Origin: an uncultured Acidobacteriota bacterium
Lineage (GTDB): Bacteria > Acidobacteriota > Thermoanaerobaculia > Multivoradales > UBA5704
Reading direction: 5' to 3'
Length of the DNA stretch: 64,000 bases
NCBI GenBank assembly: GCA_963700145.1
Contig: OY969474.1
Span: 544,001 to 608,000, forward strand
Part shown: positions 1 through 21,344 of the stretch, one piece after another
Position numbering within the stretch: position 1 is the first letter of the stretch
Layout: the number at the start of each line of letters is the position of its first letter
Position numbers and translations under genes: made by a program
The notes under the pieces: model-generated
Database searches by the model: none
What the model was told of the DNA's origin: nothing
Seen by the model: the letters and a program-made list of their open reading frames with translations, nothing else

Positions 1-692
1 AGATCGCCCTGGAGCCGATCGCGCTGCCAGAGCGCGAAGTCGGCGTACTGGATGGGGAGCTCCGGCAGCGGCGAGACGTGGCCCGCGTAGAAGGCCTGGT
101 AGAGAGCGGTCAGCTCCCACGTCCAGATGCCGCTCGACCATCCGTCACAGGCGATGTGATGCAGGACGGAGAGCAGGATGTGCTCCTGCGGACCGAGTCG
201 CAGCAGCAGGTTGCGCACGAGCGGTCCGCACGCCAGGTCGAAGGGCCGCCGCAGCTCCGCGTCGACGATCCGGCGCGCCTCGGTCTCGCGCTCAGAGGGC
301 GCCAGGAGCGAGAGATCGACGAAGGGGAGCCGCGCCGGGCGGAAAGGCTGCACGCTCTGCAGAGGTTCCTCGGCGTCGGAGCGGACGACGGTGCGCAGCG
401 CTTCGTGCCGGCGCACGATCTCGTCGAGGGCGCTCTTCAGGGCCGCCGGCGCGAGGCGGCCGGTCAAGCGGAAGGGCAGAGGCACCTGATAGACGCCGCT
501 GCCGGGCTCGAGCTGCTGGAGAAACCAGACGCGGCGCTGCGCGAACGAGAGCGGCATCTGGCCGGTGCCGGGAGCCCGCCGGGGGATCGGGAAGCGCGAC
601 AGATCGATACCCTTGTCGCGCAGGATCTGAGCGAGCCGCCGGTACTGGTCGGGAGGCAGCGCGGCGATGTCGGCGGGGAGCTGCTGGCTCAT
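1..692 (-). CDS. NRPS, N-terminal condensation domain (partial, continues past left edge)
   Basis: Manual translation from ATG 692 (ATGA overlap with the upstream NRPS stop): MSQQLPADIA...PLSFAQRRVWFLQQLEP...SVLHHIACDGWS...ELPIQYADFA. Absent from the ORF track because there is no stop in the window. Confidence 0.93.
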   Translation of the reverse strand, partial: MSQQLPADIAALPPDQYRRLAQILRDKGIDLSRFPIPRRAPGTGQMPLSFAQRRVWFLQQLEPGSGVYQVPLPFRLTGRLAPAALKSALDEIVRRHEALRTVVRSDAEEPLQSVQPFRPARLPFVDLSLLAPSERETEARRIVDAELRRPFDLACGPLVRNLLLRLGPQEHILLSVLHHIACDGWSSGIWTWELTALYQAFYAGHVSPLPELPIQYADFALWQRDRLQGD

Positions 693-3600
693 CGCAAGAG
701 CCCCTGGACCTCGTGGTCCAACTCCGACCTGGCCTCGGCCAGGATCTGCGCGATCGCGAGGTCCTCGTCGCGCACGGCGGCGCGCGACTCCTCCATCTGG
801 CGGGCGGTGGCGGCGATGGTGGGTGCTTCGAGGAAGCGTCGCAGCGGGATCTCGACGCCGTGGCGGCTGCGGAGGCGATTGAGCACCTGGGTGGCGAGCA
901 GGGAGTGACCGCCGAGATCGAAGAAGCTGTCGTGGCGGCCGGCCCGTTCGATGCGCAGGACGCCCTGCCAGACCTCGGCGACGGTCTGTTCGAGCTCTGT
1001 GCGGGGGGGCTCGAAGCTGTCGGCGGCGAGCGAGTGGAGCTCGGCGGGCTTCTCCAGGGCGTGGCGGTCGATCTTGCCGCTGACCGTGCGCGGCAGCGCC
1101 GCGAGCTGGACGAAGGCGGAGGGGACCATGGGCTCGGGCAGCCGGGCGCGCAGAAACTCCCCGAGCTGCGGCAGGGCGGCGGCGGCGAAGCCGCGCAGCG
1201 GCTTGTTGGTCAGCTCGCGCCGGTGCGCGGCGGGTGGCGGGGCAGGGAGGGCTACGGGCCGGGGGAGGGAGGGGGACTGGCCGGGTGGGCGGCTCTGCAG
1301 CACCAGGTCGAACGAGCCGTTCGCCGCGGCGCCCGTCCACAGCAGCTCGACGCTATAGGGGAGCTGTGCCGTCAGGTCCCAGAGGTTGGCAGGGTCCACC
1401 CAGTCCCGGGGAGGCGGCTGCGCGAGCGCCTGGCGCAGGTCGCCCACGGTCTCGGGGGCACCGTCGCCGTCGAGCCAGGCTGCGGTGCGCAGCGCCTCGG
1501 CCAGGCGGGCGTTGGGCACGCTGGTGAAGCCGAGCGCCTCGGGGCGGCCGTCGGCCAGGTGCCGGCGCAGGCTCTCGAGGTCCATGCCGGCCGCGCGCCA
1601 GTCGCGCCAGGCGACGTCGCGGCGCGCCGGCAGTGCCGGCTCGAGCAGCAGGATGGCGTCGTACTGGAAGCGGTTGATCTCGTTGGGAGAGCGCCCGCCC
1701 TTGGGCAGGATGCGCAGATGAGCGGGGCGCGGCAGCTCGCGCACGACCTCGGCAAACAGCGCCGGGTCGATCACCAGGTCCTTGTCCTGGAGCAGGCTGT
1801 CCTCGACGCGGCGCCGCAGCTCGGCGCGGCCGAGGCGCGGATCGGCGGCCTGCGCGAGCTGCACCGAGGCATGGAAGGCGCGCAGCAGCGGCAGGCTGCG
1901 CACGCCACCGACGAAGACGGCGCCGCCGGGGGCGGTGAGGCGCACCGCCTCGGCCACGGCGTCGCGCAGGTACTGCTCGTCGGGGAAGTGCTGTGTCACC
2001 AGGTTGAAGACCACGGTGTCGAACGAGCCATCGGGCAGATCGCCGAGCTCGTGGGCGGCGCGGCGCTCGACGGCGACGCCCGGCAACGGCGGGACGAGGG
2101 AGGCAAGCCGGCGGCGCAGGAAGCCCACCGCGGTCTCGGAGATGTCCGTTGCGAGATAGCTGGCGCAGTGCGGAGCGACGCGGAACAGCAAGAGCCCCGT
2201 GCCGGCGCCGATCTCGAGCACCCGCCCAGGACGCAGGGCGAGGATGCGTGCCACGGAGTCGTCGATGCTCTCGAGCACCTCCGCCTCGGGCAGCGCGCGG
2301 TGGGTGTAGCTGCTGGTCCAGGAGCGGGTATTGATGTTGTGATCGACCGCCGAGTAGGCCGGATCGAGGGCGTAAATCTCGTCGTAGAGGCTGCGGGTCT
2401 GCGCGATGTAGTCGGTGCGCAGGCCGGCGCCGTCCCCCGGACCGAGCGAGCCCAGCGAGTCCAGTGCCACGTAGGCCACCAGGCGCAAGTCGCCCTGGCC
2501 GTAGTCGTGGGCCGCCACCGCCGCCTCCTCGACCGCCGGATGGCAGCGCAGGGCGGTCTCGATCTCGCCCAGCTCGACGCGGTTGCCGCGCACCTTGACC
2601 TGCTGGTCGCGGCGGCGCAGGAAGACGAGACTGCTGTCGGGAAGCCAGCGTCCCAGGTCGCCGGTGCGGTAGAGCCGCCCGCCGGCGCCGCCCAGCGCGT
2701 CGGGCACGAAGCTCGCCGCCGTCTCGGCCGGCCGGTCGAGATAGCCGTCGGCCAGGTGCGCGCTGCGGATGTGGATCTCGCCCGGCACCCCGCGCGGGGC
2801 CGGTTGACCGTGGCGGTCGAGCAGCACGACGTGCCGGCCCTCGAACGCACGGCCCACCGGAACCGAGGCCTGGCGGCGGTCCGCCACCAGCACCGGATGC
2901 CAGGTGGCGAGCACGGTCTCCGATGGACCGTAGAGGTTGTACAGCCGCGGCGTCGCGGGGAAGCGCTCGAGCCAGGAGGCGGCTAGCTCGCCGCGCACCG
3001 CCTCACCCGCCAGCAGCAGGGCGGCGAGAGCGGGGAAGGGGTGATTGCCATCGTCCTCGCCCAGGCTCTGCAGCAGCTGCTGCGCGAAGCTCGGCACGAC
3101 CTGCAGCAGCGTCACCTGCTCGGCGCAGAGCCAGACCGCCAGGGCCGCCGGGTCGAACCGCAGCGACGGCTCGGCCATGCACAGCGTCGCCCCGAGGCAG
3201 AGCGCGCCGAAGATCTCGCAGTAGGACGCGTCATAGCCGCACGAGGCCCACTGTGCGAAGCGCTGGTGCGGCGCGATGGCGAAGGGCTTGCCCTGGCAGA
3301 GCACGAACTGACTGAAGCTGCGGTGGGACTCGACGATCCCCTTGGGCCGGCCGGTGGAGCCGGAGGTGTAGGCGACGTAGGCGGGCTGGGCCGGGTCGAC
3401 CTCCACCAGCGGCCGGGTCGCGGGCAGCGCATCGAACCCCGCGAGGTCCACGACTGGCCAGTCGCCGCCCTCGGCGAGCGCCGGGTGCTGGCGCAACGAC
3501 GAGGCGTCGGTCAGCAGCGCGCCGGCCGAGGCCTCGGCCAGCACCTGCGCGAGCCGCGCGGTGGGCTGGCGCGGGTCGAGGCAGACAAAGGCGCAGCCGG

Positions 3601-6600
3601 CCTTGAGGACGCCGAGCAGGGCGGCGACCTGCTGCGGCGCGCTCGGCAGCAGCACCGCGACGCGGCGGGCCGCCCCCAGCCCGAGCCCGAGCAGGCCGTG
3701 GGCCACGCGGTTGGCGCGCCGGTCGAGCTCGCCGTAGCTGACCTCCACCCCCTCGCAGCTCACCGCCACCACGTCTACCTGGCGGTCCACCCAGCTCTCG
3801 AAGAGGCGGTGCAGGCAGGTGTCGGGATAGAGCTCCGGCAGCCGGTGGTCCCACTGCGCGAGCAGCTGCCGCCTCTCCTCGGCATCGAGCAGCGCAACGT
3901 CCCAGAGGCGCTGATCTGGGTCCTCCACGATCCCTTCGAGCAGCAGGACGAAATGCCGGAGCATCTGCTCGATGGTCGATCTCTCAAACAGGTCCGCCGC
4001 GTACACCCCCTGGCACTCCAGCTCCTCCTCCCCAGGCGTCTCCCACAGATTGACCGTCAGGTCGAAGGTCGACATCCGATTGTCGATCTCCCAGACGCTC
4101 CAACGGACGCCGCCGGCCCGCTGCTCTCCCTCTTGGGTCGCCGGCTGGTGGAACAGCACTTGGATGAGCGGTTGTCGGCTGAGGTCGCGCTCGGGCCGCA
4201 ACGCCTCCACCAACCGCTCGAATGGCAGGTCCTGGTGGACATAGGCCTCGAAGGTAGTCTTCTTCGTCTGTGCGAGAAGCTCCCCAAAGCGAGGATGCCC
4301 GTCGAGCTGCACGCGCAACACCAGAGTGTTGACGAAGAAGCCGATCAGGGACTCGAGCTCGGGACGGTTGCGGTTGGCGATCGGACATCCCACCGCGAAG
4401 TCGTCCTGATCGGTGTACCGATGCAGCAGCGCCTCGAAGGCGGCGAGCAGCACGATGTAGAGCGTCGCTCCCGCGCGCCGCCCCAGCTCCCTCAGCCGCG
4501 CCACCAGCTCCCCGGACAGCGGCCGCGACAGCCGACCGCCGCGGTAGCTCTGCACCGCCGGCCGCGACCGGTCTGCCACCAGCTCGAGCCCCGGCAGCCC
4601 CGCGAGCTGCCCGCGCCAGTACTCGAGCTGCCTCGCCATTTCCGCCTCGCGCCCGTGCTGCCATTCGGCGAAGTCCGCGTACTGGATCGGCAGTGCCGCG
4701 AGCGGTGACGGCGCGCCCGCCACGAACGCCGCGTAGAGCGCCAGCAACTCGCCGTAGAGCACGCCGATCGACCAGCCGTCGGCCACCACGTGATGCATCG
4801 AAAGGATCAGGACGTGGTCCTCCGGCCCCAGGCGCAGGAGGAGAGAGCGGAAGAGCGGGCCACAGGTCAGAGCGAAGGGACGGCGCACCACGCCTTCGGC
4901 AACGCGGCGTGCCTCCGCCTCGCGCGCCGCACCGGACAGATCCCTCAGCTCCAACCGCGGGAGGCGCAGCGCAGCGTAGGGGGCGATTACCTGAACCGGC
5001 TGCCCGCCGGTTGCGTCGAAGGCGGTGCGTAGCACCTCATGCCGCCGGACGATCTCGTTTAGCGCACGCTCCAACGCCGCCACGTCGAGCGAGCCCCGCA
5101 GCCGCCGCGCCGTGTGCAAGTTGTACACGGCAGAGCCGGGCGCCAACTGGTCTAGGAACCACAGACGGACCTGGGCAAACGACGGGCGGGCGCGCTCTGC
5201 GGCCGGCCAGCGAGGGGCGATCGGCAACAGCGACGGATCCAGACCCTCCCGACGAAGCAGCTCCTCCGCTTGATGCGCGGTGGCGGCGATGGTGGGTGCT
5301 TCGAGGAAGCGTCGCAATGGGATCTCGACGCCGTGGCGGCTGCGGAGGCGATTGAGCACCTGGGTGGCGAGCAGGGAGTGACCGCCGAGGTCGAAGAAGT
5401 TGTCGTGGCGGCCGGCCCGTTCGATGCGCAGGACGCCCTGCCAGACCTCGGCGACGGTCTGTTCGAGCTCTGTGCGGGGGGGCTCGAAGCTGTCGGCGGC
5501 GAGCGAGTGGAGCTCGGCGGGCTTCTCCAGGGCGTGGCGGTCGATCTTGCCGCTGACCGTGCGCGGCAGCGCCGCGAGCTGGACGAAGGCGGAGGGGACC
5601 ATGGGCTCGGGCAGCCGGGCGCGCAGAAACTCCCCGAGCTGCGGCAGGGCGGCGGCGGCGAAGCCGCGCAGCGGCTTGTTGGTCAGCTCGCGCCGGTGCG
5701 CGGCGGGTGGCGGGGCAGGGAGGGCTACGGGCCGGGGGAGGGAGGGGGACTGGCCGGGTGGGCGGCTCTGCAGCACCAGGTCGAACGAGCCGTCCGCCGC
5801 GGCGCCCGTCCACAGCAACTCGACATCGTAGGGGAGCTGCGCCGCCAGGTCCCAGAGGTCGGCGGGATCGACCCAGGCCTGGGGCACCGGCTCGGCGAGC
5901 ATCTCGCGCAGGCCTCCCACGGCCTCGGGGGCACCGTCGCCGTCGAGCCAGGCCGCGGTGCGCAGCGCCTCGGCCAGGCGCGCGTTGGGCACGCCGGTGA
6001 AGCCGAGCGCCTCGGGGCGGTCGTCGACCAGGTGCCGGCGCAGGCTCTCGAGGTCCATGCCGGCGCGCCAATCGCGCCAGGCGACGTCGCGGCGCAGCGG
6101 CTGCGCCGGCTCGAGCAGCAGGATGGCGTCGTACTGGAAGCGGTTGATCTCGTTGGGGGAGTGCCCGCCCTTGGGCAGGACGCGCAGATGAGCGGGGCGC
6201 GACAGCTCGCGCACGACCTCGGCAAACAGCGCCGGGTCGATCACCAGGTCCTTGTCCTGGAGCAGGCTGTCCTCGACGCGGCGCCGCAGCTCGGCGCGGT
6301 CGAGGCGCGGGTCGGCGTGCGCGAGCTGCACCGAGGCGTGGAAGGCCCGCAGCAGCGGCAGGCTGCGCACGCCGCCGACGAAGACGGCGCCACCGGGAGC
6401 GGTAAGGCGCACCGCCTCGGCCACGGCCTCGCGCAGGTACTGCTCGTCGGGGAAGTGCTGCGTCACGAGATTGAAGACCACGGTATCGAACGAGCCGGCG
6501 GGCAGATCGCCGAGCTCGTGGGCGGCGCGGCGCTCGACGGCGACGCCCGGCAGCGGCGTCGCGAGCGCAGCGAGCCGGCGGCGCAGGAAGCCCACCGCGG

Positions 6601-9600
6601 TCTCGGAGATGTCCGTTGCGAGATAGCTGGCGCAGTGCGGAGCGACACGGAACAGCAGCAGCCCGGTGCCGGCGCCGATCTCGAGCACCCGACGGGGGCG
6701 TAGGGCGAGGATGCGCTCGACCGAGTCCTCGATACTCTCGAGCACCTCCGGCTCGGGCAGGGCGCGGTGCGTGTAGCTGCTGGTCCAGGAACGGGTGTTG
6801 ATATTGCCGTCGACCGCGGAATAGGCCGGATCGAGGGCGTAGATCTCGTCGTAGAGGCTGCGGGTCTGCTCGATGTAGTCGGCGCGCAGGCCGGCGCCGT
6901 CCCCCGGACCGAGCGAGCCCAGCGGGTCCAGCGCCACGTAGGCCACCAGACGCAGGTCGCCCTGGCCGTAGTCGTGGGCCGCCACCGCCGCCTCCTCGAC
7001 CGCTGGGTGGCAGCGCAGGGCGGTCTCGATCTCGCCCAGTTCGACGCGGTTGCCGCGCACCTTGACCTGCTGGTCGCGGCGGCGTAGGAAGACGAGACTG
7101 CCGTCGGGAAGCCAGCGTCCCAGGTCGCCGGTACGGTAGAGCCGCCCACCGGCACCGCCCAGCGCGTCGGGCACGAAGCTCGCCGCCGTCTCGGCCGGCC
7201 GGTCGAGATAGCCGTCGGCCAGGTGCGCGCTGCGGATGTGGATCTCGCCCGGCACCCCGCGCGGGGCCGGTTGGCCATGGCGGTCGAGCAGCACGACGTG
7301 CCGGCCCTCGAACGCACGGCCCACCGGAACCGAGGCCTGGCGGCGGTCCGCCACCAGCACCGGATGCCAGGTGGCGAGCACCGTCTCCGACGGACCGTAG
7401 AGGTTGAACAGGCGCGGCGTCGTGGGGAAGCGCTCGCGCCAAGAGATGGCCAGCTCGCCGCGCACTGCCTCGCCCGCCAGCAGCAGGGCGGCGAGAGCCG
7501 GGAAGGGATGACCGCCGCCGCCATCGCCCAGGCTCTGCAGGAGCTGCTGCGCGAAGCTCGGCACGACCTGCAGCAGCGTCACCTGCTCGGCGCAGAGCCA
7601 GACCGCCAGGGCCGCCGGGTCGAACCGCAGCGACGGCTCGGCCATGCACAGCGTCGCCCCGAGGCAGAGCGCGCCGAAGATCTCGCAGTAGGACGCGTCA
7701 TAGCCGCACGAGGCCCACTGTGCGAAGCGCTGGTGCGGCGCGATGGCGAAGGGCTTGCCCTGGCAGAGCACGAACTGACTGAAGCTGCGGTGGGACTCGA
7801 CGATCCCCTTGGGCCGGCCGGTGGAGCCGGAGGTGTAGGCGACGTAGGCGGGCTGGGCCGGGTCGACCTCCACCAGCGGCCGGGTCGCGGGCAGCGCATC
7901 GAACCCCGCGAGGTCCACGACTGGCCAGTCGCCGCCCTCGGCGAGCGCCGGGTGCTGGCGCAACGACGAGGCGTCGGTCAGCAGCGCGCCGGCCGAGGCC
8001 TCGGCCAACACCTGCGCGAGCCGCGCGGTGGGCTGGCGCGGGTCGAGGCAGACGAAGGCGCAGCCGGCCTTGAGGACGCCGAGCAGGGCGGCGACCTGCT
8101 GCGGCGCGCTCGGCAGCAGCACCGCGACGCGGCGGGCCGCCCCCAGCCCGAGCCCGAGCAGGCCGTGGGCCACGCGGTTGGCGCGCCGGTCGAGCTCGCC
8201 GTAGCTGACCTCCACCCCCTTGCAGCTCACCGCCACCACGTCTGCCTGGCGGTCGGCCCAGCTCTCGAAGAGGCGGTGCAGGCAGGTGTCGGGATAGAGC
8301 TCCGGCAGCCGGTGGTCCCACTGCGCGAGCAACTGCCGCGTCTCCTCGGCATCGAGCAGCGCAATCTCCCAGAGGCGCCGCTCCGGGTCCGCGACGATGC
8401 CCTCAAGCAGCAGGACGAAGTGCCGCAGCATCTGCTCGACCGTCGACCCCTCGTAGAGGTCCGCCGCGTACACCCCCTGGCACTCCAGCTCCTCCTCCCC
8501 AGGCGTCTCCCACAGATTGACCGTCAGGTCGAAGGTCGACATCCGATTGTCGATCTCCCAGACGCTCCAGGTGAGGCCCGCGGTTTGCCGTTCCTCCTGC
8601 GAAACGGACTGGAGGTGGAACAGCACCTGGACGAGCGGCTGACGGCTGAGGTCGCGCTCGGGCCGCAACGCCTCCACCAGCCGCTCGAACGGCAGGTCCT
8701 GGTGAGCGTAGGCCTCGAAGGTGGTCTTCTTGACCTCGTCGAGGAGCTCGGCGAACCGCGGGTGCCCCGCGAGCTGCGCGCGCAGGACGAGCGTGTTGAC
8801 GAAGAAGCCGATCAGGGGCTCGAGCTCGGGACGGTTGCGGTTGGCGATTGGACATCCCACCGCGAAGTCGTCCTGATCGGTGTACCGATGCAGCAGCGCC
8901 TCGAAGGCGGCGAGCAGCACGATGTAGAGCGTCGCTCCCGCGCGCCGCCCCAGCTCCCTCAGCCGCGCCACCAGCTCCCCGGACAGCGGCCGCGACAGCC
9001 GGCCGCCGCGGTAGCTCTGCACTGCCGGCCGCGAGCGGTCCGCCACCAGCTCCAGCCCGGGCAGCCCCGCGAGCTGCCCGCGCCAGTAGTCGAGCTGCGC
9101 CGCCATCTCCGCCTCGCGCCCGTGCTGCCACTCGGCGAAGTCCGCGTACTGGATCGGCAGCTCCCGGAGCGGTGACGGCGCGCCCACGACGAACGCCGCG
9201 TAGAGCGCCAGAAGCTCGCCGTACAGCACGCCGATCGACCAGCCGTCGGCCACGACGTGGTGCATTGCCAGGATCAGGACGTGGTCGTCCACCGCCAAGC
9301 GCAGCAGCAGAGGTCGGAACAACGGCCCGCGGCTCAGCGCGAAGGGACGCCGCACCGCGCCTTCGGCGACCCGCCGCGCCTCCGCCTCGCGCGCCCTGGC
9401 CGGGAGCCCCCAGAGGTCGAACCGCGGCAGGCGCAGCGCCGCGTGCGGCGCGACCACCTGCACCGGCTGCCCGCCGGTTGCATCGAACGCGGTGCGCAGG
9501 ACCTCGTGGCGCCGCACCACCTCGTCGAGGGCACGCTCCAACACCGCCACGTCGAGCGAGCCCCGCAGACACCGCGCCGTGTGCAGGTTGTACACCGGCG

Positions 9601-9805: not shown

Positions 9806-11319
9806 CAAGACAGTTCCCGCACCCAACGACCCGCGCTCGCGCTGAACAGCTCCCGGGCGGCCTCGATGTCGGTGCTCATCACCCGGTCCTCTTCCAGGAA
9901 CGGGATACGCGCGCGCAGCTCGCGGAATACCTCTTCGGTGGCCGGCGAAAGCCGCAGTGGCTCGTTGAGATCGATGGCCTGGCAGGCGGTCATCAGCTCG
10001 ATGCTCATGACGTACTCGCAGTTGTCGAGGATCTGAGCCAGCTTGTGGGCGGAGGTCCCGCCCATGCTGACGTGGTCCTCCTGGAGCTGGCAGGTGGGAA
10101 TCGTGTCGACGCAGGCCGGCGTGGAGAGGACTTTGTTCTCGTTGACCAGCGCGGCCGACGTGTACTGGGAGATCATGAGCCCGGAGTTGATCCCTGGCCG
10201 CTTCACCAGGAAACTCGGTAGGCCGCGCTGTCCCGACAGGAGCTGATACGTCCGCCGCTCGGAAATGCTCGCCAGCTCGCTGATCGCCATGCAGGCAAAG
10301 TCGAGCACCAGCGCCGTCGACTCGCCGTGCAGGTTGCCGCCGAACAGAACCTCGTCCTGCTCGGGGAAGAACAGTGGGTTGTCGGAGACGCTGTTGCACT
10401 CCCGCTCGACCACCTCGCGGGCGAAGCCGACGGCTTGGCGTATGGCGCCGTGGATCTGGGGAATGCAGCGGAAGGAGTAGGGGTCCTGCATCGACTGGTT
10501 GCAGGTCGGCAGCTCGAAGTGGTTGCTTCCCGCCAGCAGCGAGCAGAGGTTGCCCGCCACCACCCGGCGCTCTTCGTGGAGAGAGGTGGTGTGGTAGAGC
10601 GGGTGATAGAAGGTGCGCGAGGCGCTGAACGCTTGGATGCTCAGTGCCGCCAGCAGGTCGGCGGCCTTGGACAGCAGCGCGCCGCGATCCAGGGCGTGGG
10701 CGGCCCAGCCGTTGATGTACTGCACGCCGTTGGTCAGGGCCAGACCCTCCTTGGGCCGCAGGCGCAAAGGCTCCCAACCCATGGCGGGCAGTACGTCACG
10801 GGCATCCTCGACGCGGCCTTGGAAGTGGACTCGCCCCAGTCCCAGCAGCGGCAACGCCATATGGGCCAGGGGCGCCAGATCGCCGCTGGCGCCGACGGTT
10901 CCCTTCTTCGGGATCGCCGGGATCACGCCGCGGTTCCAGTGCTCCAGCAGGCGCTCGACGGTCGGTCGCGAGATGCCGGTGTGACCGCTGCGGAAGGTGA
11001 GGAGCTTCACCAGCAGGACGAGGCGCGAGATCCTCTCGGGCACCAGCTCTCCGACCCCGCAGGCGTGGGACACCACGTGGTTGTACTGCAGCCGCTCCAT
11101 CTCCCCCGCCGGGACCCGGGTCTCGCAGAGCGAGCCGAAGCCGGTGTTGACGCCGTAGAGGTAACGGTCCTCCGCGGCCTTGGCGTCGACGAAGCGGGCA
11201 CCGCCGTCGATGCTGTCGGCGACCTCCGGGGAGAGCCGCAGCTCGGGCGGGTCCTCGGCGAGGCGGCAGAGCTCGTCGATCGAGTAGCGATGCAGATCGA
11301 TGAGATGAGTCGTGGCCAT
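9805..11319 (-). CDS. MIO-dependent aromatic amino acid lyase/aminomutase with histidine-type (HAL-like) signatures
   Basis: YGVNTGFG loop, GTVGASGDLAPL (ASG forms MIO), VVSHACGVG, QDPYSFRC, QEDHVSM. Start ATG 11319 (MATTHL). Confidence 0.9.
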   Translation of the reverse strand: MATTHLIDLHRYSIDELCRLAEDPPELRLSPEVADSIDGGARFVDAKAAEDRYLYGVNTGFGSLCETRVPAGEMERLQYNHVVSHACGVGELVPERISRLVLLVKLLTFRSGHTGISRPTVERLLEHWNRGVIPAIPKKGTVGASGDLAPLAHMALPLLGLGRVHFQGRVEDARDVLPAMGWEPLRLRPKEGLALTNGVQYINGWAAHALDRGALLSKAADLLAALSIQAFSASRTFYHPLYHTTSLHEERRVVAGNLCSLLAGSNHFELPTCNQSMQDPYSFRCIPQIHGAIRQAVGFAREVVERECNSVSDNPLFFPEQDEVLFGGNLHGESTALVLDFACMAISELASISERRTYQLLSGQRGLPSFLVKRPGINSGLMISQYTSAALVNENKVLSTPACVDTIPTCQLQEDHVSMGGTSAHKLAQILDNCEYVMSIELMTACQAIDLNEPLRLSPATEEVFRELRARIPFLEEDRVMSTDIEAARELFSASAGRWVRELS

Positions 11320-11335
11320 GAGCCCTGAGCTCCGT

Positions 11336-13594
11336 CTACGGCGCACCTTCGCCGCTCGTCACGGGCGCGTCGGCGTTCTCCGCTCGCTGTCCTTCGAGGA
11401 ACGCCTTGACCTCCTCCGCCGACAGTCTGGCGACCAGCTCGGCCAGCCGCTCGACGCGGCCGGCGTCGGCGACCGGTTTGCCCGTCGCCGCGAGGTGCCG
11501 GGCGAGCCGGGCCGGGCTCGGATGCTCGAAGAGACGGTGGGCATTGATCGAGACGTGCAGCCTCTGGCCCAGACGCGAGACGATCTGAGTCGCGAGCAAG
11601 GAGTCCCCGCTCAGCTCGACGAAGTCGTCGTGAACCCCGACCGGCGTGAAGCCGAAAACCTCCTGCCAGGCGGCGACGATCTGCGTCTCCATCTCGTTCC
11701 GAGGTGCCGTGTAGGGAGTCGACAGGGACGGGCGCGGGCGCGCTCCGGGCGCCGCGACGTTCGCCGCCACCGCGGTGGCATCCGGAGCGGAGCGCGCCGC
11801 GGGCGGGGACTGCACCTCGTAGCGCTGGCGCTGGAAAGGATAGGTGGGAAGCGGTATGCGCCGGCGGCGCCGGCCGGCATGGCGGCGCGCGAAATCGACG
11901 TCGGCTCCCGCGACCCAGAGATAGCCGAGGCTGGCGAGGTCCTCCGACGCCTCGGTGTCCGCGGGCAGCGTCGCGACGGCGACCGTGGCCTGGCCGAGGT
12001 CCTGCGCCAGGGCGGGCAGGTGCCGCGCTCTGACTTCGCCGTTCAGCATGCGAGCGGCGTCGTCGAGGACTGCGCCGAGGCCGGCGGTGTCGCGGTATAC
12101 CGCGGCGCGCCGGCGGCCGAAAGCCCGGCGCCCCGTCTGCAGCGTGTACGCGAGGTCCGACGGATCGACCTCCGGGTGAAGCTCCAGATGGCGCCGTAGA
12201 CGTCGCGTCATCTCTTCGAGGGCCGCGTCGTCGCGGGCCGACAGGACCAGGAGGTGCCATGAGTCCACGGCCGTCGCGGCCTGCTGCGCGGGAGCTTCTT
12301 CGAGGACGACGTGGGCGTTGGTGCCGCCGACGCCGAACGAGCTGACGCCGGCGCGGCGGGGAGAGGCGACGGCCGGCCATGCGGAAAGTCTCGCGTTGAC
12401 GAAGAACGGGCTGTCCTCGAGCGAGATGTCCGGGTGGAGGGACTCGAAGTGGAGGACGGGCGGCAGCTCGCGATGCTCGAGAGCGAGCGTGGCCTTGATG
12501 AGGCTGGCGATGCCCGCAGCCTCGTCCAGGTGTCCCACGTTGGGTTTGCTCGAGCTGAGGGCGCAGAACCCTCGCGCCGCGGTGGAAAGGCGGAACGCGC
12601 GGGTCAGGGCGGCGACCTCCATCGCGTCCCCGAGCGGTGTGCCGACGCCGTGCGCCTCGACGTAACCGATCGTCTCCGCGGGGATCCCGGCGGCGCCGAG
12701 CGCCAGGGTGACGACCTCCGCCTGGCCTTCGACGCACGGGGTGGTGAACCCCGGCTTGCCCGCCCCGTCGTTGTTCACGGCCGAGCCGCGGATGACGGCG
12801 CGTATCGGGTCGCCGTCGGCGACGGCGTCGGAGAGGCGCTTGAGGAGGACCAGCCCGGCCCCGTTGCCGTGGACGGTGCCCACCGCCCGCCGGTCGAAGG
12901 GGCGGCAGCGGCCGTCCGGCGAGAGGGAGAGACCCTCGCGGTAGAGATAGCCCCGCGGCTGCGGGAAGAAGATGGAGACACCTCCGGCCAAGGCCATGTC
13001 GCAGTGGTAGTCGAGCAGGCTCTGACACGCGAGGTGAACGGCGACCAGAGAGGTGGAGCAGGCGGACTGGAGGGCGATGCTGGGCCCCCGCAGGTCGAGC
13101 TTGTAGGAGAGGCGCGCCGTCAGGCTGCCGCCGTCCACCAGGGCCAGCGGTCCTTCCAGGAGCTCCAGCTTCTGCTCGAGCGACATCCGGCTCTCCAGGT
13201 AGGTACTCGGGCCTGCGCCGGCGAACACGCCGATGGCGCCCGCGTAAGCGGCGGGGTCGTAGCCGGCGCTCTCGAGCGCTTCCCAGGCGCACTCCAGGAT
13301 CAAGCGGTGCTGGGGATCGAGCATCTCCGCTTGGCGGGGCGGGATGCCGAAGAAGGGGGCGTCGAACAGAAGGGGGTCCTCGAGCACTCCTCCGGCTTTG
13401 ACGTAGTCGCTCCGCGCGAGCAGCTCGCGGCGGACGCCGGCCGCCGCCAGCTCGGAGTCGCTGAAGAAGCTGATGGACTCCACGCCGTCGCGCAGATTCC
13501 GCCAGAACGTCTCGGGGTCCGACGCTCCGGGGAAGCGGCAAGCCATGCCGATGATGGCCACGCCCTCCAGCGCCGCTTCCGAAGCGCTGTTCAT
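11336..13594 (-). CDS. Type I PKS module KS-ACP lacking an AT domain
   Basis: VAIIGMACRFPG, QSACSTSL (Cys), EAHGVGT and NVGHL (His, His), SSFGVGGTNAH, LPTYPFQRQRY linker, LSGDSLLA carrier. No GHSxG AT motif; only 752 aa. Confidence 0.9.
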   Translation of the reverse strand: MNSASEAALEGVAIIGMACRFPGASDPETFWRNLRDGVESISFFSDSELAAAGVRRELLARSDYVKAGGVLEDPLLFDAPFFGIPPRQAEMLDPQHRLILECAWEALESAGYDPAAYAGAIGVFAGAGPSTYLESRMSLEQKLELLEGPLALVDGGSLTARLSYKLDLRGPSIALQSACSTSLVAVHLACQSLLDYHCDMALAGGVSIFFPQPRGYLYREGLSLSPDGRCRPFDRRAVGTVHGNGAGLVLLKRLSDAVADGDPIRAVIRGSAVNNDGAGKPGFTTPCVEGQAEVVTLALGAAGIPAETIGYVEAHGVGTPLGDAMEVAALTRAFRLSTAARGFCALSSSKPNVGHLDEAAGIASLIKATLALEHRELPPVLHFESLHPDISLEDSPFFVNARLSAWPAVASPRRAGVSSFGVGGTNAHVVLEEAPAQQAATAVDSWHLLVLSARDDAALEEMTRRLRRHLELHPEVDPSDLAYTLQTGRRAFGRRRAAVYRDTAGLGAVLDDAARMLNGEVRARHLPALAQDLGQATVAVATLPADTEASEDLASLGYLWVAGADVDFARRHAGRRRRRIPLPTYPFQRQRYEVQSPPAARSAPDATAVAANVAAPGARPRPSLSTPYTAPRNEMETQIVAAWQEVFGFTPVGVHDDFVELSGDSLLATQIVSRLGQRLHVSINAHRLFEHPSPARLARHLAATGKPVADAGRVERLAELVARLSAEEVKAFLEGQRAENADAPVTSGEGAP

Positions 13595-16500
13595 GCAGGG
13601 CTCCGGGAGAGTTGCGGCGGGCGCCGGCGGAGCCTTGCCTCGCGCTGCCTGGCGGCCCTCGCCAGCGCCGCCGGGAGCTGCGAGCCGGCGAGTGCCCCCG
13701 GCGCCGGCGAAGCCTCCAGATAGGCGGCGAGGGACTCGATCGTCGGTTGCTCCAGCAGCTCCAGCATCGACAGCTTGCGGCCGAGCCTCGCGGCGATGTG
13801 GGACCGCACCCGGGCCAGGAGCAGAGAGTGACCGCCGAGGTCGAAGAAGCTCTCCGCCGTGCTCACCTCCGGCAGCTCCAGCACCTCCATCCAGATGCCG
13901 GCCAGCGCCGTCTCGACGGCGCCCTGCGGCGGCGAGGGGGGGCGCGCGTAGAGCGGGCGTGCACTCGCAACCGGTAGCGCGCGGCGGTCGACCTTGCCGT
14001 TAGGAGTCAGCGGCAAGGCGTCGAGCGGCACGAACAGCGCCGGCAGCATGTAGTGCGGCAACCGCTGCCGGAGGAAGTCCCGTAGCTCGTCGGTGGCCGG
14101 AGGCTCATCACCCTTCTCGGCGACCAGGTAGGCGATCAGGCGCCGACCGCCGCCCGCGTCGTCGGCGGTGACGACCGCGGCCTGGACGACAGCCGGATGC
14201 GCGACCAGGGCGGACTCGATCTCGCCGAGCTCGATGCGGAAGCCGCGGACCTTGACCTGGCGGTCCGTGCGGCCCAAGAACTCCAGCCTGCCGTTGGGCC
14301 GGTAGCGGGCTCGGTCACCGGTGCGATAGAGGCGCGCTCCGGGTTCGCCGCCGAGCGGGTGCGGGACGAACGCCGCCGCCGTCAGATCGCCACGCCCGAG
14401 ATAGCCTCGCGCCAGCCCCTGACCGCCGATGTAGAGCTCGCCCGGCACTCCCAGCGGCGCGAGCGCGAGCCCGTCGTCGAGAACGAGGAGGGAGGTGTTG
14501 GCGACGGGCCCCGCCACCGGCACCGGACCCGCGCCGCGCTCCACGCGGTGGGCCGCCGACCAGATCGTGGTTTCGGTGGGCCCGTAGAGGTTCCAGAGGC
14601 TCTCGCCGCGGCTCGCCAGCGCCTCGGCGAGCTCGCGCGGAAGCGCCTCACCGCCGCACAGCAGCCGCAGGCCTGGCCGGCCCGACCAGCCGGCCTCGAG
14701 GAGCAGGCGCCAGGTGGCGGGCGTACCCTGCAGGACCGTGGCGCCGCTCTCCTCGAGGAGAGCGGCGAGACGGCCGCCGTCGCCGGCTTCGTCGGCGCGG
14801 GCCAGCACCACGCGTGCCCCGACGCTCAGCGGGAGAAAGAGCTCCAGGCCGGCGATGTCGAAGCTCGGCGTCGTCACCGCCAGCAGGACGTCGCCAGGCG
14901 TGAGCCCCGGCCGCTCGGCCATCGAGCCGAGGAAGCTCACCACGGCGCGGTGCACGATCTCGACCCCCTTGGGCGTTCCCGTGGAGGCCGAGGTGTAGAT
15001 CACGTAGGCCCGGTGGTCGGCTCCCGCCCCACCGTCATGGTGGGAGTCGCTCCAGGCCGCCACGGCCGCGGCATCGGAGTCCAGGCAGACCCGGCGGTGT
15101 GCTCCGGGGAGGCCCGCGAGGCGGCTCTCGGTGATCAGGACGGCGTTGCGGGAGTCCACGAGCATGTGCTCGACGCGGTGCCGCGGATACCCGGGATCGA
15201 TGGGGACGTAGGCGCCTCCCGCCTTGAGCACGCCGAGCAGCGCCACGAGCAGCTCGAGGGAGCGCTCAAGGCAGACGCCGACGAGGACGTCCGGCCCGAC
15301 GCCGAGAGACCGTAGATGGCGTGCCAGCCGGTTGGCCCGGCGGTCCAGCTCACCGAAGGTGAGGCACGCGTCGGCACAGGCCGCGGCCACGGCGTCGGGG
15401 CGGCGGCGAGCCTGGTCCTCGAAGAGCTGATGCAGGCAGTCGGGCCGCGGTCCGACCACCGCGGTGTCGCTCCACTCCGTCAGGAGCTGGTGCTGCTCGG
15501 CCTGGCTCAGGAGCGCGAGCTCCTGGATGCTCACCTCCGGCTGGGCGATGGCGCTCTCCAGAAGGCGTTGGTACTGAGCCGCCAGGCGGGCGACGGTCGG
15601 CGGCGCAAAGAGATCGGTGCTGTACTCCCACTCGAGGAGGGTCTGCTCGTCCTCGGCCCGTGGGACACGGCCGATGCGCTGCTCCGAGCGCGGTGTCACG
15701 ATGACGTTGAGGTCGAACTTGGCCGAGCCGTTGTGCGGATATTCGATGCGTCCGCTCAGCTCCCCGAAGTCCAGGTCCGGCATCGGAGCGTCGTGGAAGC
15801 TGAACATCACCTGGAAGATCGGGTTGAAGCTCGCGTGACGCTCCGGCCGCAGCTCCTGGACCAGACGATCGAAGGGAAGGTCCTGGTGGGCGAAGGCCTC
15901 CAAGGTGACCTGGTGGACACGGGCCAGCACCTCACGGAACGAGGGGGTGCCCGACAGATCGACGCGCAAGGCCAGGTTGTTGATGATCATGCCGAGGATG
16001 CGCTCGGTCTCACGCCGCCGCCGTCCGGCGACCACCGTACCCACCACCAGGTCGGCGCTGCCGTTGTAGCGGTGGAGGAGGGCGTCGAACGCCGCCAGGA
16101 GCACCATGAACGGAGTGGCGCCGCAGCGGCGGCCGAGCTCGCGGGCCGACGTGAAGAGACCGGGTCGCATCGGTTCCTTGTGGACGGCGCCGCGGAAGCT
16201 CTGCGCCGCGGGCCGCGGGGCGTCGGAGGGGAGCTCGGTCACTCCCGGGATGCCTGCCAGCTTCCGTTTCCAGTACTCGAGCTGCAGGGCGGCGGCTGCG
16301 CTCTGGAGCCACTCCCGCTGCCAGACGGCGTAGTCGGCGAACTGCAACGGCAGCTCCGGCAGCGGAGAGGCGGAGCCGGAGGAGATGGCGCGATACAGCT
16401 CTTCGATCTCACCGAGCAGCAGAGCCATCGACCAGCCGTCGTGGAGAAAATGGTGCTCGACCTGGACCAGCAGGTGCTCGCGCGGGCCGAGGCGCAGCAG

Positions 16501-18822
16501 GCTCCAGCGCACGAGCGGCAGGCGCGTCACGTCGAAGCCGGAGCGGCAGTCCGCGCGGAGCAATCTCGTTTCCTCGGTCGCGCGCGCGGGCCCGGGCAGG
16601 CCCGCCAGGTCGACCACCGGCAGGCGCGGGAGCCACGGCGAGTGAAGGCGCTGGAAAGGCTGGCCGTCTTCGCTCGGGAACGAGGTGGCGAGGATCTCGT
16701 GCCGCGCCACGACCTCGGCCAGCGCCACGCGCAGCGCCGCCACGTTCAAGCCACCCGAGAGGCGCACCGTCACGTAGGCGTTGTAGGCGACGTTCGCGGG
16801 GGAGACCTGCTCGAGGAACCAGACGCGCTCCTGTGCGGACGACAGCGGCAGCCGGCCGGTGCGGGGAACGCGCCGCAGCGGCTGACCGTCCGCATGCTCC
16901 GGGGACTCCGGTGCCTGCGCTACGCGGGCGGCGAGCTCGGCCACCGTGGAGTTGCCCAGCAGGATCTCGGCGGGCAGCGCGACCGACAGGCGCTCCCGAA
17001 TCCGGCTCGCCACCTGGGCGGCCATCAGGGAGTGACCGCCCAGCTCCAGGAACCCGTCGTGGACGCCGACCGGACCGCAGCCGAGGAGGTCCTCCCAGAT
17101 CCCTGCCACCAGACTCTCCACCGGGGTCTCCGGCGCCAGGTAGGGGCGGCCGAGGTCACCTCGGGTCCGCGTTGGAGCGGGCAGCGCGCTGCGGTCGATC
17201 TTGCCTGCCGGCGTCAGGGGCAGCTCGTCGAGGAAGCGGAAGGACGCGGGCACCATGTAGGGCGGCAGCTCTCCGGCGACGAAAGCGCGCAGGTCGGCGA
17301 GGTCCGGCCGGCGCTCGCGCGCCACCAGATAGGCCACCAGGCGGAGCGAGCCCGGCACGTCCTCCCACCCGACCACCACCGACGCGGCCACGTTCGGGTG
17401 CCGTAGGAGGACCGACTCCACCTCCGCCGGCTCGATCCGGAAGCCGCGGATCTTGAGCTGGCGATCGGCGCGCCCGAGGAACTCGAGGTTGCCGTCGGGG
17501 AGGCGCCGTGCGAGGTCACCGCTGCGGAACAGCCGCGCCCCGGGGACGGTAGCGCGAGGATCGGGCACGAAGCTGGCGGCGGTGAGGTCGGGGCGGCGCA
17601 GGTAGCCCCGAGCGACACCGGCGCCGCCGAGGTAGAGCTCGCCCGTCGCGCCGTCAGGAAGCGGGTGCAGGTCGGCGTCCAGCACGTGCGCCGCGACGTT
17701 GGCGATCGGTCTGCCGATCGGGACGGATCGGCGGAGGCCTTCCGGTTCGCTCCCCTCCTCCTCCTCCCACACCGTGGCGGTGACCGTGCCCTCGGTGAGA
17801 CCGTAGGCGTTGAGCCAGCGGACGCGGTGCCCCACCGTGCGGCGCCAGAGCTCGAGCTGCTGCGGCAGCACGCGCTCGCTCCCCACGACGACCAGGCGCA
17901 GGCTCTCGGGCCAGGGCAGGGCGGTGCGCCCGATTTCCGAGGCCCAGCCGTGCCAGTACGGGGCAGGCAGGTTGAGGACGGTGAGCGCCTGCGCGCGGGC
18001 AAGCTCCACCATCGCCGCCACGGAAGTCGCCGCCGCGGCGGAGCGCAGTACGACGGCGCTGCCGCTCAGCCAGGAGGGGAAAATCTCTTCCACGGAGACG
18101 TCGAAGCCGATGGCGGCGAACTGAAGGACCCGATCGGCCGGAGAGAGGCAGTATCGGGTAGCGATGGCGTAGCTCAGGTTGAGGAGAGCCCGGTGGGGCA
18201 CCGCGACGCCTTTGGGCACGCCGGTGGAACCGGACGTGAAGATGACGTAGGCGAGGTTCGATGGGCCGGCACCCCCACTGGGCAAGCTGTCCGGACGTCC
18301 CGCGATCGCCTCCCGGTCCCAGTCGACGCGGACCAGAGGCGGCCCGCCCGTGCCGCCGGCCCACGTCGAGGCCGTGACGACCGCCGCCGGCTTCGCCTCG
18401 TCCAGGATCGCCGCGAGGCGTCGCGGCGGCATGGCAGGGTCCAGCGGCAGGTATGCCGCGCCCGCCGCGAGGATGCCGAGGATCGCGACGAAGAGCTGCG
18501 GCGAGGGAGGGAGGCAAACTCCGACCAAGGTCTCGGGGCCCACGCCGAGTGTTTGCAGATGGTGGGCCAGACGATTGGCGCGGCACACCAGCTCCGCATA
18601 GCTCAGGTGATGGTCGTCGCAGACCAGCGCGACGGCGTCGCCCGCCTCGGCCGCTAGAGCGGCGATGAGCTCGTGCACGCACCGGTCCGCAGGGACAGGG
18701 GTTGCCGGACCGTTCGAGAGGTTGGCCTGGTAATGGCCGGCACGCCGGGAAGCGGTCCGATGCTCGCCGCTGGGAAGTTGGGAGCTACCTTCCTCGAGCG
18801 TTCGCGAGCCATCTTGTTCCAC
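13591..18822 (-). CDS. Initiating NRPS A-T-C-A-T (A1 basic-residue-like, A2 Gly-like); start uncertain
   Basis: A1 FTSGSTGVPKG/FDVSVEE, T LGGHSLMA, C EHHFLHDGWS, A2 FDIAGLEL...YGPTETTIWS, T LGGHSLLL. In-frame GTG at 18822 follows a G-rich RBS-like tract; the ORF track extends to 18981. Confidence 0.9.
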   Translation of the reverse strand: MEQDGSRTLEEGSSQLPSGEHRTASRRAGHYQANLSNGPATPVPADRCVHELIAALAAEAGDAVALVCDDHHLSYAELVCRANRLAHHLQTLGVGPETLVGVCLPPSPQLFVAILGILAAGAAYLPLDPAMPPRRLAAILDEAKPAAVVTASTWAGGTGGPPLVRVDWDREAIAGRPDSLPSGGAGPSNLAYVIFTSGSTGVPKGVAVPHRALLNLSYAIATRYCLSPADRVLQFAAIGFDVSVEEIFPSWLSGSAVVLRSAAAATSVAAMVELARAQALTVLNLPAPYWHGWASEIGRTALPWPESLRLVVVGSERVLPQQLELWRRTVGHRVRWLNAYGLTEGTVTATVWEEEEGSEPEGLRRSVPIGRPIANVAAHVLDADLHPLPDGATGELYLGGAGVARGYLRRPDLTAASFVPDPRATVPGARLFRSGDLARRLPDGNLEFLGRADRQLKIRGFRIEPAEVESVLLRHPNVAASVVVGWEDVPGSLRLVAYLVARERRPDLADLRAFVAGELPPYMVPASFRFLDELPLTPAGKIDRSALPAPTRTRGDLGRPYLAPETPVESLVAGIWEDLLGCGPVGVHDGFLELGGHSLMAAQVASRIRERLSVALPAEILLGNSTVAELAARVAQAPESPEHADGQPLRRVPRTGRLPLSSAQERVWFLEQVSPANVAYNAYVTVRLSGGLNVAALRVALAEVVARHEILATSFPSEDGQPFQRLHSPWLPRLPVVDLAGLPGPARATEETRLLRADCRSGFDVTRLPLVRWSLLRLGPREHLLVQVEHHFLHDGWSMALLLGEIEELYRAISSGSASPLPELPLQFADYAVWQREWLQSAAAALQLEYWKRKLAGIPGVTELPSDAPRPAAQSFRGAVHKEPMRPGLFTSARELGRRCGATPFMVLLAAFDALLHRYNGSADLVVGTVVAGRRRRETERILGMIINNLALRVDLSGTPSFREVLARVHQVTLEAFAHQDLPFDRLVQELRPERHASFNPIFQVMFSFHDAPMPDLDFGELSGRIEYPHNGSAKFDLNVIVTPRSEQRIGRVPRAEDEQTLLEWEYSTDLFAPPTVARLAAQYQRLLESAIAQPEVSIQELALLSQAEQHQLLTEWSDTAVVGPRPDCLHQLFEDQARRRPDAVAAACADACLTFGELDRRANRLARHLRSLGVGPDVLVGVCLERSLELLVALLGVLKAGGAYVPIDPGYPRHRVEHMLVDSRNAVLITESRLAGLPGAHRRVCLDSDAAAVAAWSDSHHDGGAGADHRAYVIYTSASTGTPKGVEIVHRAVVSFLGSMAERPGLTPGDVLLAVTTPSFDIAGLELFLPLSVGARVVLARADEAGDGGRLAALLEESGATVLQGTPATWRLLLEAGWSGRPGLRLLCGGEALPRELAEALASRGESLWNLYGPTETTIWSAAHRVERGAGPVPVAGPVANTSLLVLDDGLALAPLGVPGELYIGGQGLARGYLGRGDLTAAAFVPHPLGGEPGARLYRTGDRARYRPNGRLEFLGRTDRQVKVRGFRIELGEIESALVAHPAVVQAAVVTADDAGGGRRLIAYLVAEKGDEPPATDELRDFLRQRLPHYMLPALFVPLDALPLTPNGKVDRRALPVASARPLYARPPSPPQGAVETALAGIWMEVLELPEVSTAESFFDLGGHSLLLARVRSHIAARLGRKLSMLELLEQPTIESLAAYLEASPAPGALAGSQLPAALARAARQREARLRRRPPQLSRSPA

Positions 18823-19028
18823 GCAAAAACCCCCTGGACGGAGCTTATCAACATCCTGCGATATTCGGAACGTTGGAGGAACGCAGCAACGCAGCACCTC
18901 ACTTGAGGGTAGGTGCGCCCCAGGATATTCTCGATAGCTGGGTGAAGAATCAGCGAGACCGGGTGGAGCAGATGCGGTCACCGGAGCCGATCGCCGACAT
19001 CGAACGAGCCGTCAAGGAGTGAGGAGCC

Positions 19029-19376
19029 GTGAACGAACTGGTACAGAGGTTGACGCAGGAGCAGTCCATCGTCGCGAGCCTTCGGCCGGAGCCCTCGTTA
19101 GATGCTCTCAAGGCCGCGCTGGACCGCGGCTATATACACGTCAAGTTCATCGAGACGCGTGGCGGCACCGAGCTTGGGATCCGTCTCGACCGGGAGAGCA
19201 GCGACCTTTCGGGGGCGAACTTCGAACAGGGCATCGGGAGCGTACGGATCGTCGGCAGTTTGGTCCTCGACTACGTGCCGGTCCGGTTCCGCGGGCATCT
19301 CGACCTGGAGAGCCTGAAGGGAACGGGCAGGCTCGAGCCCGAGGGGGAAGGCGATGAGAGCGGAGGCCGATCGTGA
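19029..19376 (+). CDS. NRPS-cluster accessory protein of the family often annotated 'MbtH domain protein' (not a canonical MbtH)
   Basis: GTG after GAGGAG. MNELVQRL...RGYIHVKFIETRGGTELGIRLD resembles, from recall, a small family found beside or fused to MbtH in NRPS clusters. Confidence 0.65.
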   Translation: MNELVQRLTQEQSIVASLRPEPSLDALKAALDRGYIHVKFIETRGGTELGIRLDRESSDLSGANFEQGIGSVRIVGSLVLDYVPVRFRGHLDLESLKGTGRLEPEGEGDESGGRS

Positions 19377-21111: not shown

Positions 21112-21128
21112 CGCTTTCTCCCGCCCGG

Positions 21129-21344
21129 TCAGGGCTCTCCGTCCGGCGGCGGCCGGTCGGCCGGATCGTCCGGCCCGCCGCGGCGCGCCCGCTCCTTGAG
21201 ACGCTCGTACTCGCGGCGCGGCAGCGGCGTGCCGTGCGTCACTGCGCCCGGCCCGCCTTCGGCGGTCCGCTCTTTGCCGCCGCACTCGGGCGCGGTGGGA
21301 TCGAAGCCGTGCCCGGCCTCGCTCTCGCCGCGCTCGCTGGTCAT
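21129..21344 (-). CDS. Small hypothetical protein (71 aa; alternative start 21371)
   Basis: ATG after GAAGGAAA; co-oriented directly upstream of the 564-aa gene. Confidence 0.45.
   Translation of the reverse strand: MTSERGESEAGHGFDPTAPECGGKERTAEGGPGAVTHGTPLPRREYERLKERARRGGPDDPADRPPPDGEP

Follow-up and report, generated by a model that had tools for sequence, protein, structure and literature searches.

The stretch of DNA analysed here, called the window throughout, comprises 64,000 nucleotides (genome positions 544001-608000) of a single 5.46-Mb contig, OY969474.1, assembled from an uncultured Acidobacteriota bacterium (GCA_963700145.1). Its G+C content is 72%, and real reading frames are marked by their third-position G+C. 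The left part of the window carries the first five genes, G1 to G5, of a nine-gene, 12-module operon encoding a hybrid of nonribosomal peptide synthetase (NRPS) and polyketide synthase (PKS). This operon spans ~47 kb (genome positions 516267-562981) and continues 28 kb leftwards past the window edge, to a thioesterase and an MFS exporter. The third gene, G3, encodes a 4-methylideneimidazole-5-one (MIO) enzyme resembling histidine ammonia-lyase (HAL). G3 and the adenylation domains of the adjoining gene G4 are the main subjects of this report.

Organisation of the operon and its modules

A domain map, obtained with Pfam and with phmmer using in-cluster seeds, revealed for G1 to G5 the order A-T-C-A-T / KS-ACP / MIO enzyme / two C-A(MT)-T modules / C..., with adenylation (A), carrier (T), condensation (C), ketosynthase (KS), acyl carrier protein (ACP) and methyltransferase (MT) domains. 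The same order in five co-oriented genes had been proposed in a first-pass annotation made from the letters of the window; we add that all five genes lie on the minus strand and that the portion first seen makes up less than half of the full cluster. The assembly line had been placed at positions 1-19376, which holds for 1-18981; positions 19023-19376 are occupied by a plus-strand open reading frame (ORF) of 117 aa whose sole Pfam match is weak and implausible. The 5' limit of the operon is at 18981 at the latest, GTG codons at 18981, 18897 and 18822 being candidate starts of G1. Also borne out were overlapping stop and start codons at three of the four junctions (ATGA for G1/G2, TGATG for G3/G4 and ATGA for G4/G5) and a release domain outside the window, a thioesterase (TE) at the end of G9. 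At the G2/G3 junction, G3 begins either with a GTG that overlaps G2 by 11 nt or with an ATG 16 nt past its stop codon and preceded by GGAG. The ATG at 11319 is the more likely start, because it gives a protein of 504 aa, the length of the homologues.

G1 (13591-18981) encodes a protein of 1796 aa composed of a loading didomain A1-T, a C domain, A2 and a T domain. The C domain (15481-16854) contains the sequence EHHFLHDG (16435-16458; G1 aa 842-849), which fits the pattern EHHXXHDG, absent from the eight other C domains read, and it directly follows an A-T loading didomain. This pattern was described, in the part of the report by Yu and van der Donk that concerns it, as the signature of ureido-forming C domains, where it stands in place of xHHxxxDG, and as present in none of the other C domains of MIBiG (PMC11212132). 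Motif and position agree with what that part of the report describes, and the G1 domain is predicted to be of the ureido-forming type, joining two amines via a bicarbonate-derived carbonyl, as had been suggested for this A-T-C-A-T starter.

The substrate codes of the A domains were read by hand at the Stachelhaus positions, located from the motif anchors of GrsA. They gave DVENVGAVTK for A1 (17200-18660) and DILQLGLIWK for A2 (13993-15423). Among single-domain structures in the PDB, A1 matched best the starter domain A1 of the anabaenopeptin synthetase ApnA (4d4g, 419.7 bits, compared with 230.9 bits for 4d4g and A3), and seven of its ten code positions are identical to the Arg code DVEDIGAVEK (Table 2, PMC5311044). 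As A1 lacks Glu331, loading of a basic, Arg-like residue, as first proposed, is no more than plausible. The code of A2 is presumably that of glycine, in line with the glycine expected at the second position.

G2 (11336-13594; 752 aa) consists of a KS (12260-13567), a KS-AT linker and an ACP (11483-11692), without acyltransferase (AT) or ketoreductase (KR) domain. The Cys-His-His residues are intact in both KS domains of the cluster, those of G2 and G7, which ruled out a non-elongating KS for G2. No free-standing AT, as would be expected for a trans-AT PKS, was found to be encoded in or near the cluster. Of the seven AT matches in the genome, six fall within open frames of very large size; the seventh, at 1.397 Mb, looks FabD-like. 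Since this sole free-standing candidate is distant and FabD-like, the G2 carrier must be loaded in trans, and we infer that either the FabD-like enzyme or the AT of G7 does so. The term AT-less PKS, used in the first-pass annotation, fits G2 but not the whole operon, as G7 outside the window has a PKS module with its own AT. Taken together, an Arg-like residue, a urea, glycine and one ketide are a fair prediction for the starter unit, with the first residue as its weakest part.

Ureido-type starters recur in this genome. Three C domains with EHHxxHDG were found at 423474 (+), 560458 (-; window position 16458) and 1515734 (+), among 43 Pfam C-domain matches, and a cluster at 421-456 kb opens with a loading A domain that shares the first seven code positions, DVENVGA, with A1.

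G4 (689-9805; 3038 aa) encodes two tandem C-A(MT)-T modules, the first with C at 8327-9661, A at 5546-8269, MT at 6188-6826 and T at 5261-5467, the second with C at 3860-5194, A at 1073-3802, MT at 1718-2359 and T at 785-994. As is characteristic of N-methylating modules, each MT (G4 aa 994-1206 and 2483-2696) is inserted into the A domain and separates the A core from the C-terminal part. The modules are tandem duplicates that repeat every ~4.47 kb: four reported stretches of 255-300 nt are 89-97% identical in nucleotide sequence, the A cores show 95% protein identity and both A domains, A3 and A4, have the code DACQLALLAK. A PDB search with A3 retrieved generic NRPS A domains only. Within the cluster, A3 and A4 are closest to A5 (42-44% identity in the core, compared with 22-35% for the other A domains), which belongs to the C-A-T protein G5 (1147 aa; window 1-692 with ATG at 692, running to genome position 541249) and has the code DPAQLALVAK. 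DPAQLAL occurs once in the host genome, in G5. The next gene, G6, lies outside the window; it is a second MIO gene in the operon and passes the tyrosine 2,3-aminomutase model TIGR03832 (511.6 compared with 501 bits). The earlier assignment of the two methylating modules to beta-amino acids is supported insofar as their A domains are most like A5, beside a tyrosine aminomutase, an argument from likeness.

The remaining genes complete the line. G7 encodes C-A-T-KS-AT-ACP-aminotransferase (class III)-C-A-T-E, G8 encodes C-A-T, and G9 (genome positions 516267-523697) encodes C-A-T-E-C-(A, C-terminal part)-T-TE; the gene of the MFS transporter starts at the stop codon of G9. The E domains are two extra C-like domains that we read as epimerisation domains from the motifs HHxxxD..SW and EGHGRE, which we take to be typical of such domains. 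The code of A6, DLFNNALTYK, is presumably that of alanine; A7 and A8 have Gly-like codes and A9 has DSGLLGCVLK. In the last module of G9 the A domain is represented by its C-terminal subdomain alone, and the carrier of this module must for this reason be loaded by another A domain.

The MIO enzyme G3 and its relatives

G3 (9805-11346) matched PF00221 over almost the full profile (positions 2-465 of 466; 554.8 bits), and its sequence GASGDL aligns to the ASG triad of Pseudomonas putida HAL, which places it in the MIO superfamily. The host genome contains three PF00221 genes, namely G3, G6 and a third one at 1.34 Mb that scores 697.1 bits with TIGR01225 and represents the HutH of the host. G3 scores 535.2 bits with this model, below its cut-off of 539.15, passes the subfamily model NF006871 and is 42% identical to the host HutH; hutU of the host is located at genome positions 302294-303928, far from G3. 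That G3 is a housekeeping HutH placed by chance within the operon was ruled out by the second HutH, the remote hutU, the 42% identity and the translational coupling of G3.

Tyr53, Ser82-His83, the ASG triad, Asn195, Tyr280, Arg283 and Glu414 of P. putida HAL are all kept in G3, and Phe329 is replaced by leucine. We take these positions to be the catalytic and imidazole-binding residues of HAL, and their conservation agrees with the earlier classification of G3 as a His-type MIO enzyme. A comparison of 62 rows of G3 relatives, hereafter the clade, with 19 rows of ordinary HutH proteins revealed nine nearly clade-fixed changes (HAL numbering: L79H, L107F, S112T, S139T, S264N, L282F, T311S, V316F and F329L), six of which, including L282F and F329L, adjoin active-site motifs. 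Eight other clade members scored 535.4-560.6 bits with TIGR01225, one of them under the cut-off.

The closest relatives of G3 are two proteins at 90% identity, followed by a large set at 63-73% whose source name is histidine ammonia-lyase; apart from the first two, clade members are 53-73% identical to G3. The source names of clade members include Chloroflexota, Acidobacteriota, Myxococcota (myxobacteria) and Actinomycetota (an actinomycete); among them are cultured strains, namely a Stigmatella, a Polyangium and an Allonocardiopsis. In the host phylum, one of 200 sampled genomes (G124) encodes a relative at 66%, the remaining matches being at 38-47%; this tally includes the unpublished genomes G024 (42%) and G152 (41%), both with ordinary HutH-level matches. 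Clade members were also found in four of 301 sampled genomes of another phylum, that of genome G201 (62-69% identity), in all four cases among PKS/NRPS genes. In a quick IQ-TREE search with 62 clade rows, 19 HutH rows and G6, rooted at the midpoint, the clade formed one side of a branch with an SH-aLRT value of 100. In this tree the placement of the single tyrosine aminomutase row is unreliable, and rows N_L124, N_L128 and N_L129 have artefactual long branches derived from stop-to-stop ORFs.

The gene context separates the clade from HutH. We collected 43 clade loci, 42 from a metagenome scan with G3 and one (L089) from G124, and compared their ORFs of at least 100 aa with the cluster proteins and with HutH and HutU of the host. 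An NRPS neighbour was present in 30 of the 43 loci and a hutU neighbour in none; for the 37 loci that have 1 kb or more of flanking sequence to one side, the corresponding counts were 27 and zero. Conversely, 18 ordinary HutH loci of the phylum, with flanks of ~1.5 kb, had no NRPS neighbour and in ten cases a hutU neighbour. A hut-type context was thus found neither for G3 nor for any locus of the clade (0/43). The NRPS neighbours mostly flank the MIO gene on both sides and share its strand in all but one of the 30 loci. Where NRPS neighbours are missing, most of the contigs end at the MIO gene. For ten flanking ORFs of such loci, Pfam detected no hut gene and identified a gamma-glutamyltranspeptidase, TPR proteins and a TauD-type dioxygenase. 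As judged from sequence relationships and neighbourhood, G3 is a dedicated paralogue belonging to a clade separate from HutH.

Two kinds of loci within the clade deserve mention. At L123 the MIO gene is split into two frames (G3 residues 8-247 and 250-485) and is probably broken or mis-assembled. At L156 (G347:C1:4162000-4181900), L155, L158 and L110, the MIO gene is followed by a C-A(Gly-like)-T gene and an acyl-CoA dehydrogenase gene, among KS-AT-KR-ACP genes, and the Gly-like A domain bears an inserted luciferase-like monooxygenase.

The companion adenylation domain and the proposed pathway

To read the pockets of A domains near clade members, the A4-A5 cores of the cluster's nine A domains were used to build a hidden Markov model, and code positions 1 to 7 were read from each match; the last two code columns were mis-registered in other rows and were left unused. 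Among 35 clade loci examined, 24 have at least one A core, and in 17 of these the code D[AV]C[QIE].. is found, in 15 of the 17 in the strict form D[AV]CQ. As controls served 80 NRPS/PKS loci chosen by likeness to G2 (1.30 Mb, 60 of them with A cores), none of which has a MIO gene; the code occurs in none of their 134 A cores. In the host genome it is present in two of 40 A cores, both in G4. In all 17 loci no other A domain on that side lies closer to the MIO gene than the code-bearing one, which shares the strand of this gene and is 50-3940 nt away. The genomes of the other phylum contain one cluster with DACQMAL within 10 kb of a MIO gene, and in G347 a C-A-T-C-A-T gene situated 10.4 kb from the MIO gene carries DACQLSL. 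The DACQ domains of other clusters likewise reside mostly in elongation modules, and Asp235, which we take to be the amine-binding residue of A domains, is kept in all DACQ-type domains. Because Asp235 is kept, and because the DACQ domains of the present cluster have an upstream C domain and an embedded MT, their substrate must have both an amine and a carboxylate.

A second arrangement was observed at L121, L125 and L141, where an A domain with the code VAWLTSL, devoid of Asp235, comes after the DACQ module. These loci suggest a second type of cluster, one that recurs and incorporates a non-amino acid.

On balance we lean slightly towards a nine-gene hybrid assembly line in which G3 acts as a histidine 2,3-aminomutase and feeds modules for N-methyl-beta-histidine. 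In this pathway A1 would load an Arg-like residue, the amine of which would be linked by the EHHxxHDG C domain via a carbonyl to glycine. The KS-ACP protein G2, loaded in trans, would add one malonate, and the beta-keto group would remain. G3 would bind free L-histidine and return the ammonia to C-3, as tyrosine and phenylalanine aminomutases do, yielding beta-histidine, which both DACQLALLAK domains would load and which would be N-methylated and incorporated twice. The next module would take beta-tyrosine from the aminomutase G6. On G7, the peptidyl-alanine would be extended by one malonate by KS-AT-ACP, and the resulting beta-keto group would be transaminated to a beta-amine. Four further residues would follow; two of the modules are Gly-coded, epimerisation domains occur twice, and the final module has no A domain of its own. 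Finally, the thioesterase would release the chain, perhaps with lactam closure on the new beta-amine, and the MFS pump would export the product.

Several observations weigh against this proposal. Sequence alone does not separate a MIO lyase from a mutase; the clade lies at the threshold of the HutH model (535-561 bits) and keeps the catalytic residues of HAL save for F329L, so that a plain lyase is possible. The pairing with the A domain is incomplete, as four of the 24 loci with A cores carry neither D[AV]C[QIE] nor the alternative code DAPH described below, and the DACQ-type pocket has no obvious imidazole-binding residue. At L125 and L141 the DACQ domain belongs to a loading module, whose substrate can do without an amine. 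Near-duplicate loci (L126/L127 and L128/L129) make the counts overstate independence, and the ordinary HutH loci used for comparison have the shorter flanks. Elsewhere in the line, the Stachelhaus codes depend on the hand reading with GrsA anchors, and the Gly-coded module 9 carries an E domain that the model does not explain. The A5 code may resemble the beta-tyrosine code of SgcC1, a likeness that could not be confirmed in the papers searched. A check of DPAQ.. as a beta-tyrosine code on other tyrosine aminomutase loci failed: among 151 sampled genomes of the order to which G201 belongs, none matched TIGR03832 at E <= 1e-140, and the match in G201 itself was sub-threshold.

The plain lyase can be put as a reading of its own: the enzymes of the clade would be true histidine ammonia-lyases recruited to secondary metabolism, supplying urocanate to a DACQ-type or other loading domain. 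The complete set of HAL catalytic and imidazole-binding residues, the threshold scores with TIGR01225, the match to NF006871 and, above all, the loading modules of L125 and L141 would fit such a role. Both DACQ domains of G4 stand in mid-chain, though, with a C domain and an embedded N-methyltransferase, and urocanate offers no amine; Asp235, with the role presumed above, is likewise at odds with this substrate. A precedent exists in the imidacin pathway, where, according to the part of the report that deals with it, a HAL provides urocanate as the proven starter, so that there, too, a His-derived unit made by a MIO enzyme enters an assembly line (PMC11301661). In the same part of that report (PMC11301661), the HAL is encoded away from the imidacin cluster and gives a PKS starter acid, whereas G3 lies inside the operon beside NRPS modules of the elongation type. 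We regard the lyase reading as unlikely.

A third reading takes its cue from variation within the clade. In three loci with a more distant MIO enzyme (59-62%; L131, L133 and L135), the code DAPH[LF]AL is found instead, in an A domain directly upstream of the MIO gene. Substrate or product may therefore vary, and the enzymes may act on a histidine analogue or yield another His-derived amino acid to be loaded by the DACQ domains; the nine clade-fixed substitutions around the active site would also be compatible with this. The equivalents of His83 and Glu414 are nevertheless kept, and the recurrent neighbours of the clade are NRPS/PKS genes, with a TauD-type dioxygenase at one locus (L144), although no search was aimed at conserved tailoring enzymes. 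We give this reading rather little credence, less than that of a lyase, and return to the histidine 2,3-aminomutase as the preferred assignment.

Neighbouring DNA, known systems and implications

To the right of 19 kb the window contains unrelated genes, among them those of an S9 peptidase, a CrtC-like protein, a hybrid kinase, SecA, a WD40 protein, a sigma-54 activator and a TonB receptor. The host SecA is 80-92% identical to proteins with the source names of metagenome-assembled genomes (MAGs) of Thermoanaerobaculia or Acidobacteriota. Judged by these names, the near relatives of the host are known only as MAGs, and its genome with three ureido-type starters adds to the interest of the lineage. 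The sequencing runs that contain the stretch are of soil metagenome DNA from two studies, with no RNA run listed; the top one may stem from the very sample that yielded the assembly. At 40549-48005 a multicopper oxidase gene adjoins the genes of an AcrB-family pump and of a CusB-like membrane-fusion protein that bears a heavy-metal-binding domain; the group resembles an island for copper efflux and has no apparent relation to the cluster. An open frame of 742 aa at 19417-21645 (-) has no Pfam or NCBIfam match and has distant paralogues elsewhere in the genome; the real protein probably begins with an internal Met around residue 178. Over its first 44-90 codons the frame matches genome positions 5251300-5251571 at 57-91%, perhaps as a repeated intergenic element. 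In an NRPS region at ~1.515-1.545 Mb of the genome, the C-domain matches are in short pieces, two of them with internal TGA stops, and the region is possibly a decayed cluster.

The starter resembles that of the threopeptin (sna) pathway of Stackebrandtia nassauensis, in which an A-T-C-A-T protein with the EHHXXHDG motif in its C domain likewise immediately precedes a single PKS module, as presented in the relevant part of the report (PMC11212132). There, SnaB has its own AT (KS-AT-T) and both Sna A domains load arginine, whereas here G2 is AT-less and the second residue is Gly-coded. The sna product, again following that part of the report, is a short bis-arginyl ureidopeptide extended by a peptide aminoacyl-tRNA ligase (PEARL), in contrast to the ten further modules of the present operon. 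The annotated genes of the cluster include no ORF resembling a lantibiotic dehydratase. ApnA shares the order A-T-C(urea)-A-T, and of the single A domains with a solved structure its A1 is the closest to ours. The anabaenopeptins, cyclic hexapeptides with ring closure on lysine, are not known to involve a PKS, a MIO enzyme or beta-residues. Modules of the KS-AT-ACP-aminotransferase type are found in the iturin/mycosubtilin and microcystin synthetases; G7 resembles them but would extend a peptidyl-alanine rather than a fatty acyl or polyketide chain.

An A domain fed by a MIO aminomutase is exemplified by SgcC4 and SgcC1 of C-1027. A MIO enzyme beside an NRPS likewise provides a beta-aryl amino acid in the cases of chondramide (CmdF), myxovalargin (MxvJ, PMC9853869) and habitasporin (HabB, PMC9802438), as described in parts of these reports, and the pair of G6 and A5 fits this scheme. 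The known aminomutase-fed lines act on tyrosine or phenylalanine, whereas G3 has the His-binding residues of HAL. With HutH (TIGR01225; P. putida HAL, 1B8F/1GKM) it shares the fold family, the ASG triad and the binding residues; it differs in having no hut neighbours, in F329L, L282F and seven other changes, and in a score just under the cut-off.

That the cluster or a close homologue has already been characterised and was not recognised by us appears very improbable. The nearest relatives of G2 in species-representative genomes are only 46-61% identical. A search of the full-text literature, which leaves out most subscription journals, found no characterised member of the clade, no histidine aminomutase and no matching cluster. 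The combination had been put forward as one not known from any characterised cluster, which agrees with this search. The cluster looks like an orphan, and the pair of MIO enzyme and A domain may represent a new activity.

Taken alone, the cluster is of moderate interest, orphan NRPS/PKS clusters being common; its value is raised by an enzyme/A-domain pairing that can be tested. Many genes are automatically named histidine ammonia-lyase on scores near the threshold, and a subset of them, embedded in assembly lines, travels with one rare A-domain pocket. We consider it an even question whether this embedded HAL-like clade is the missing MIO histidine 2,3-aminomutase and whether, together with the DACQ domain, it makes beta-histidine a widespread, hitherto unseen building block of nonribosomal peptides of soil bacteria. 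If these enzymes are aminomutases, they would answer the question, printed in 2022, why phenylalanine and tyrosine but seemingly not histidine have MIO aminomutases. They would also extend the building blocks of peptide natural products by a new beta-amino acid and provide a two-gene marker with which to mine genomes for it.

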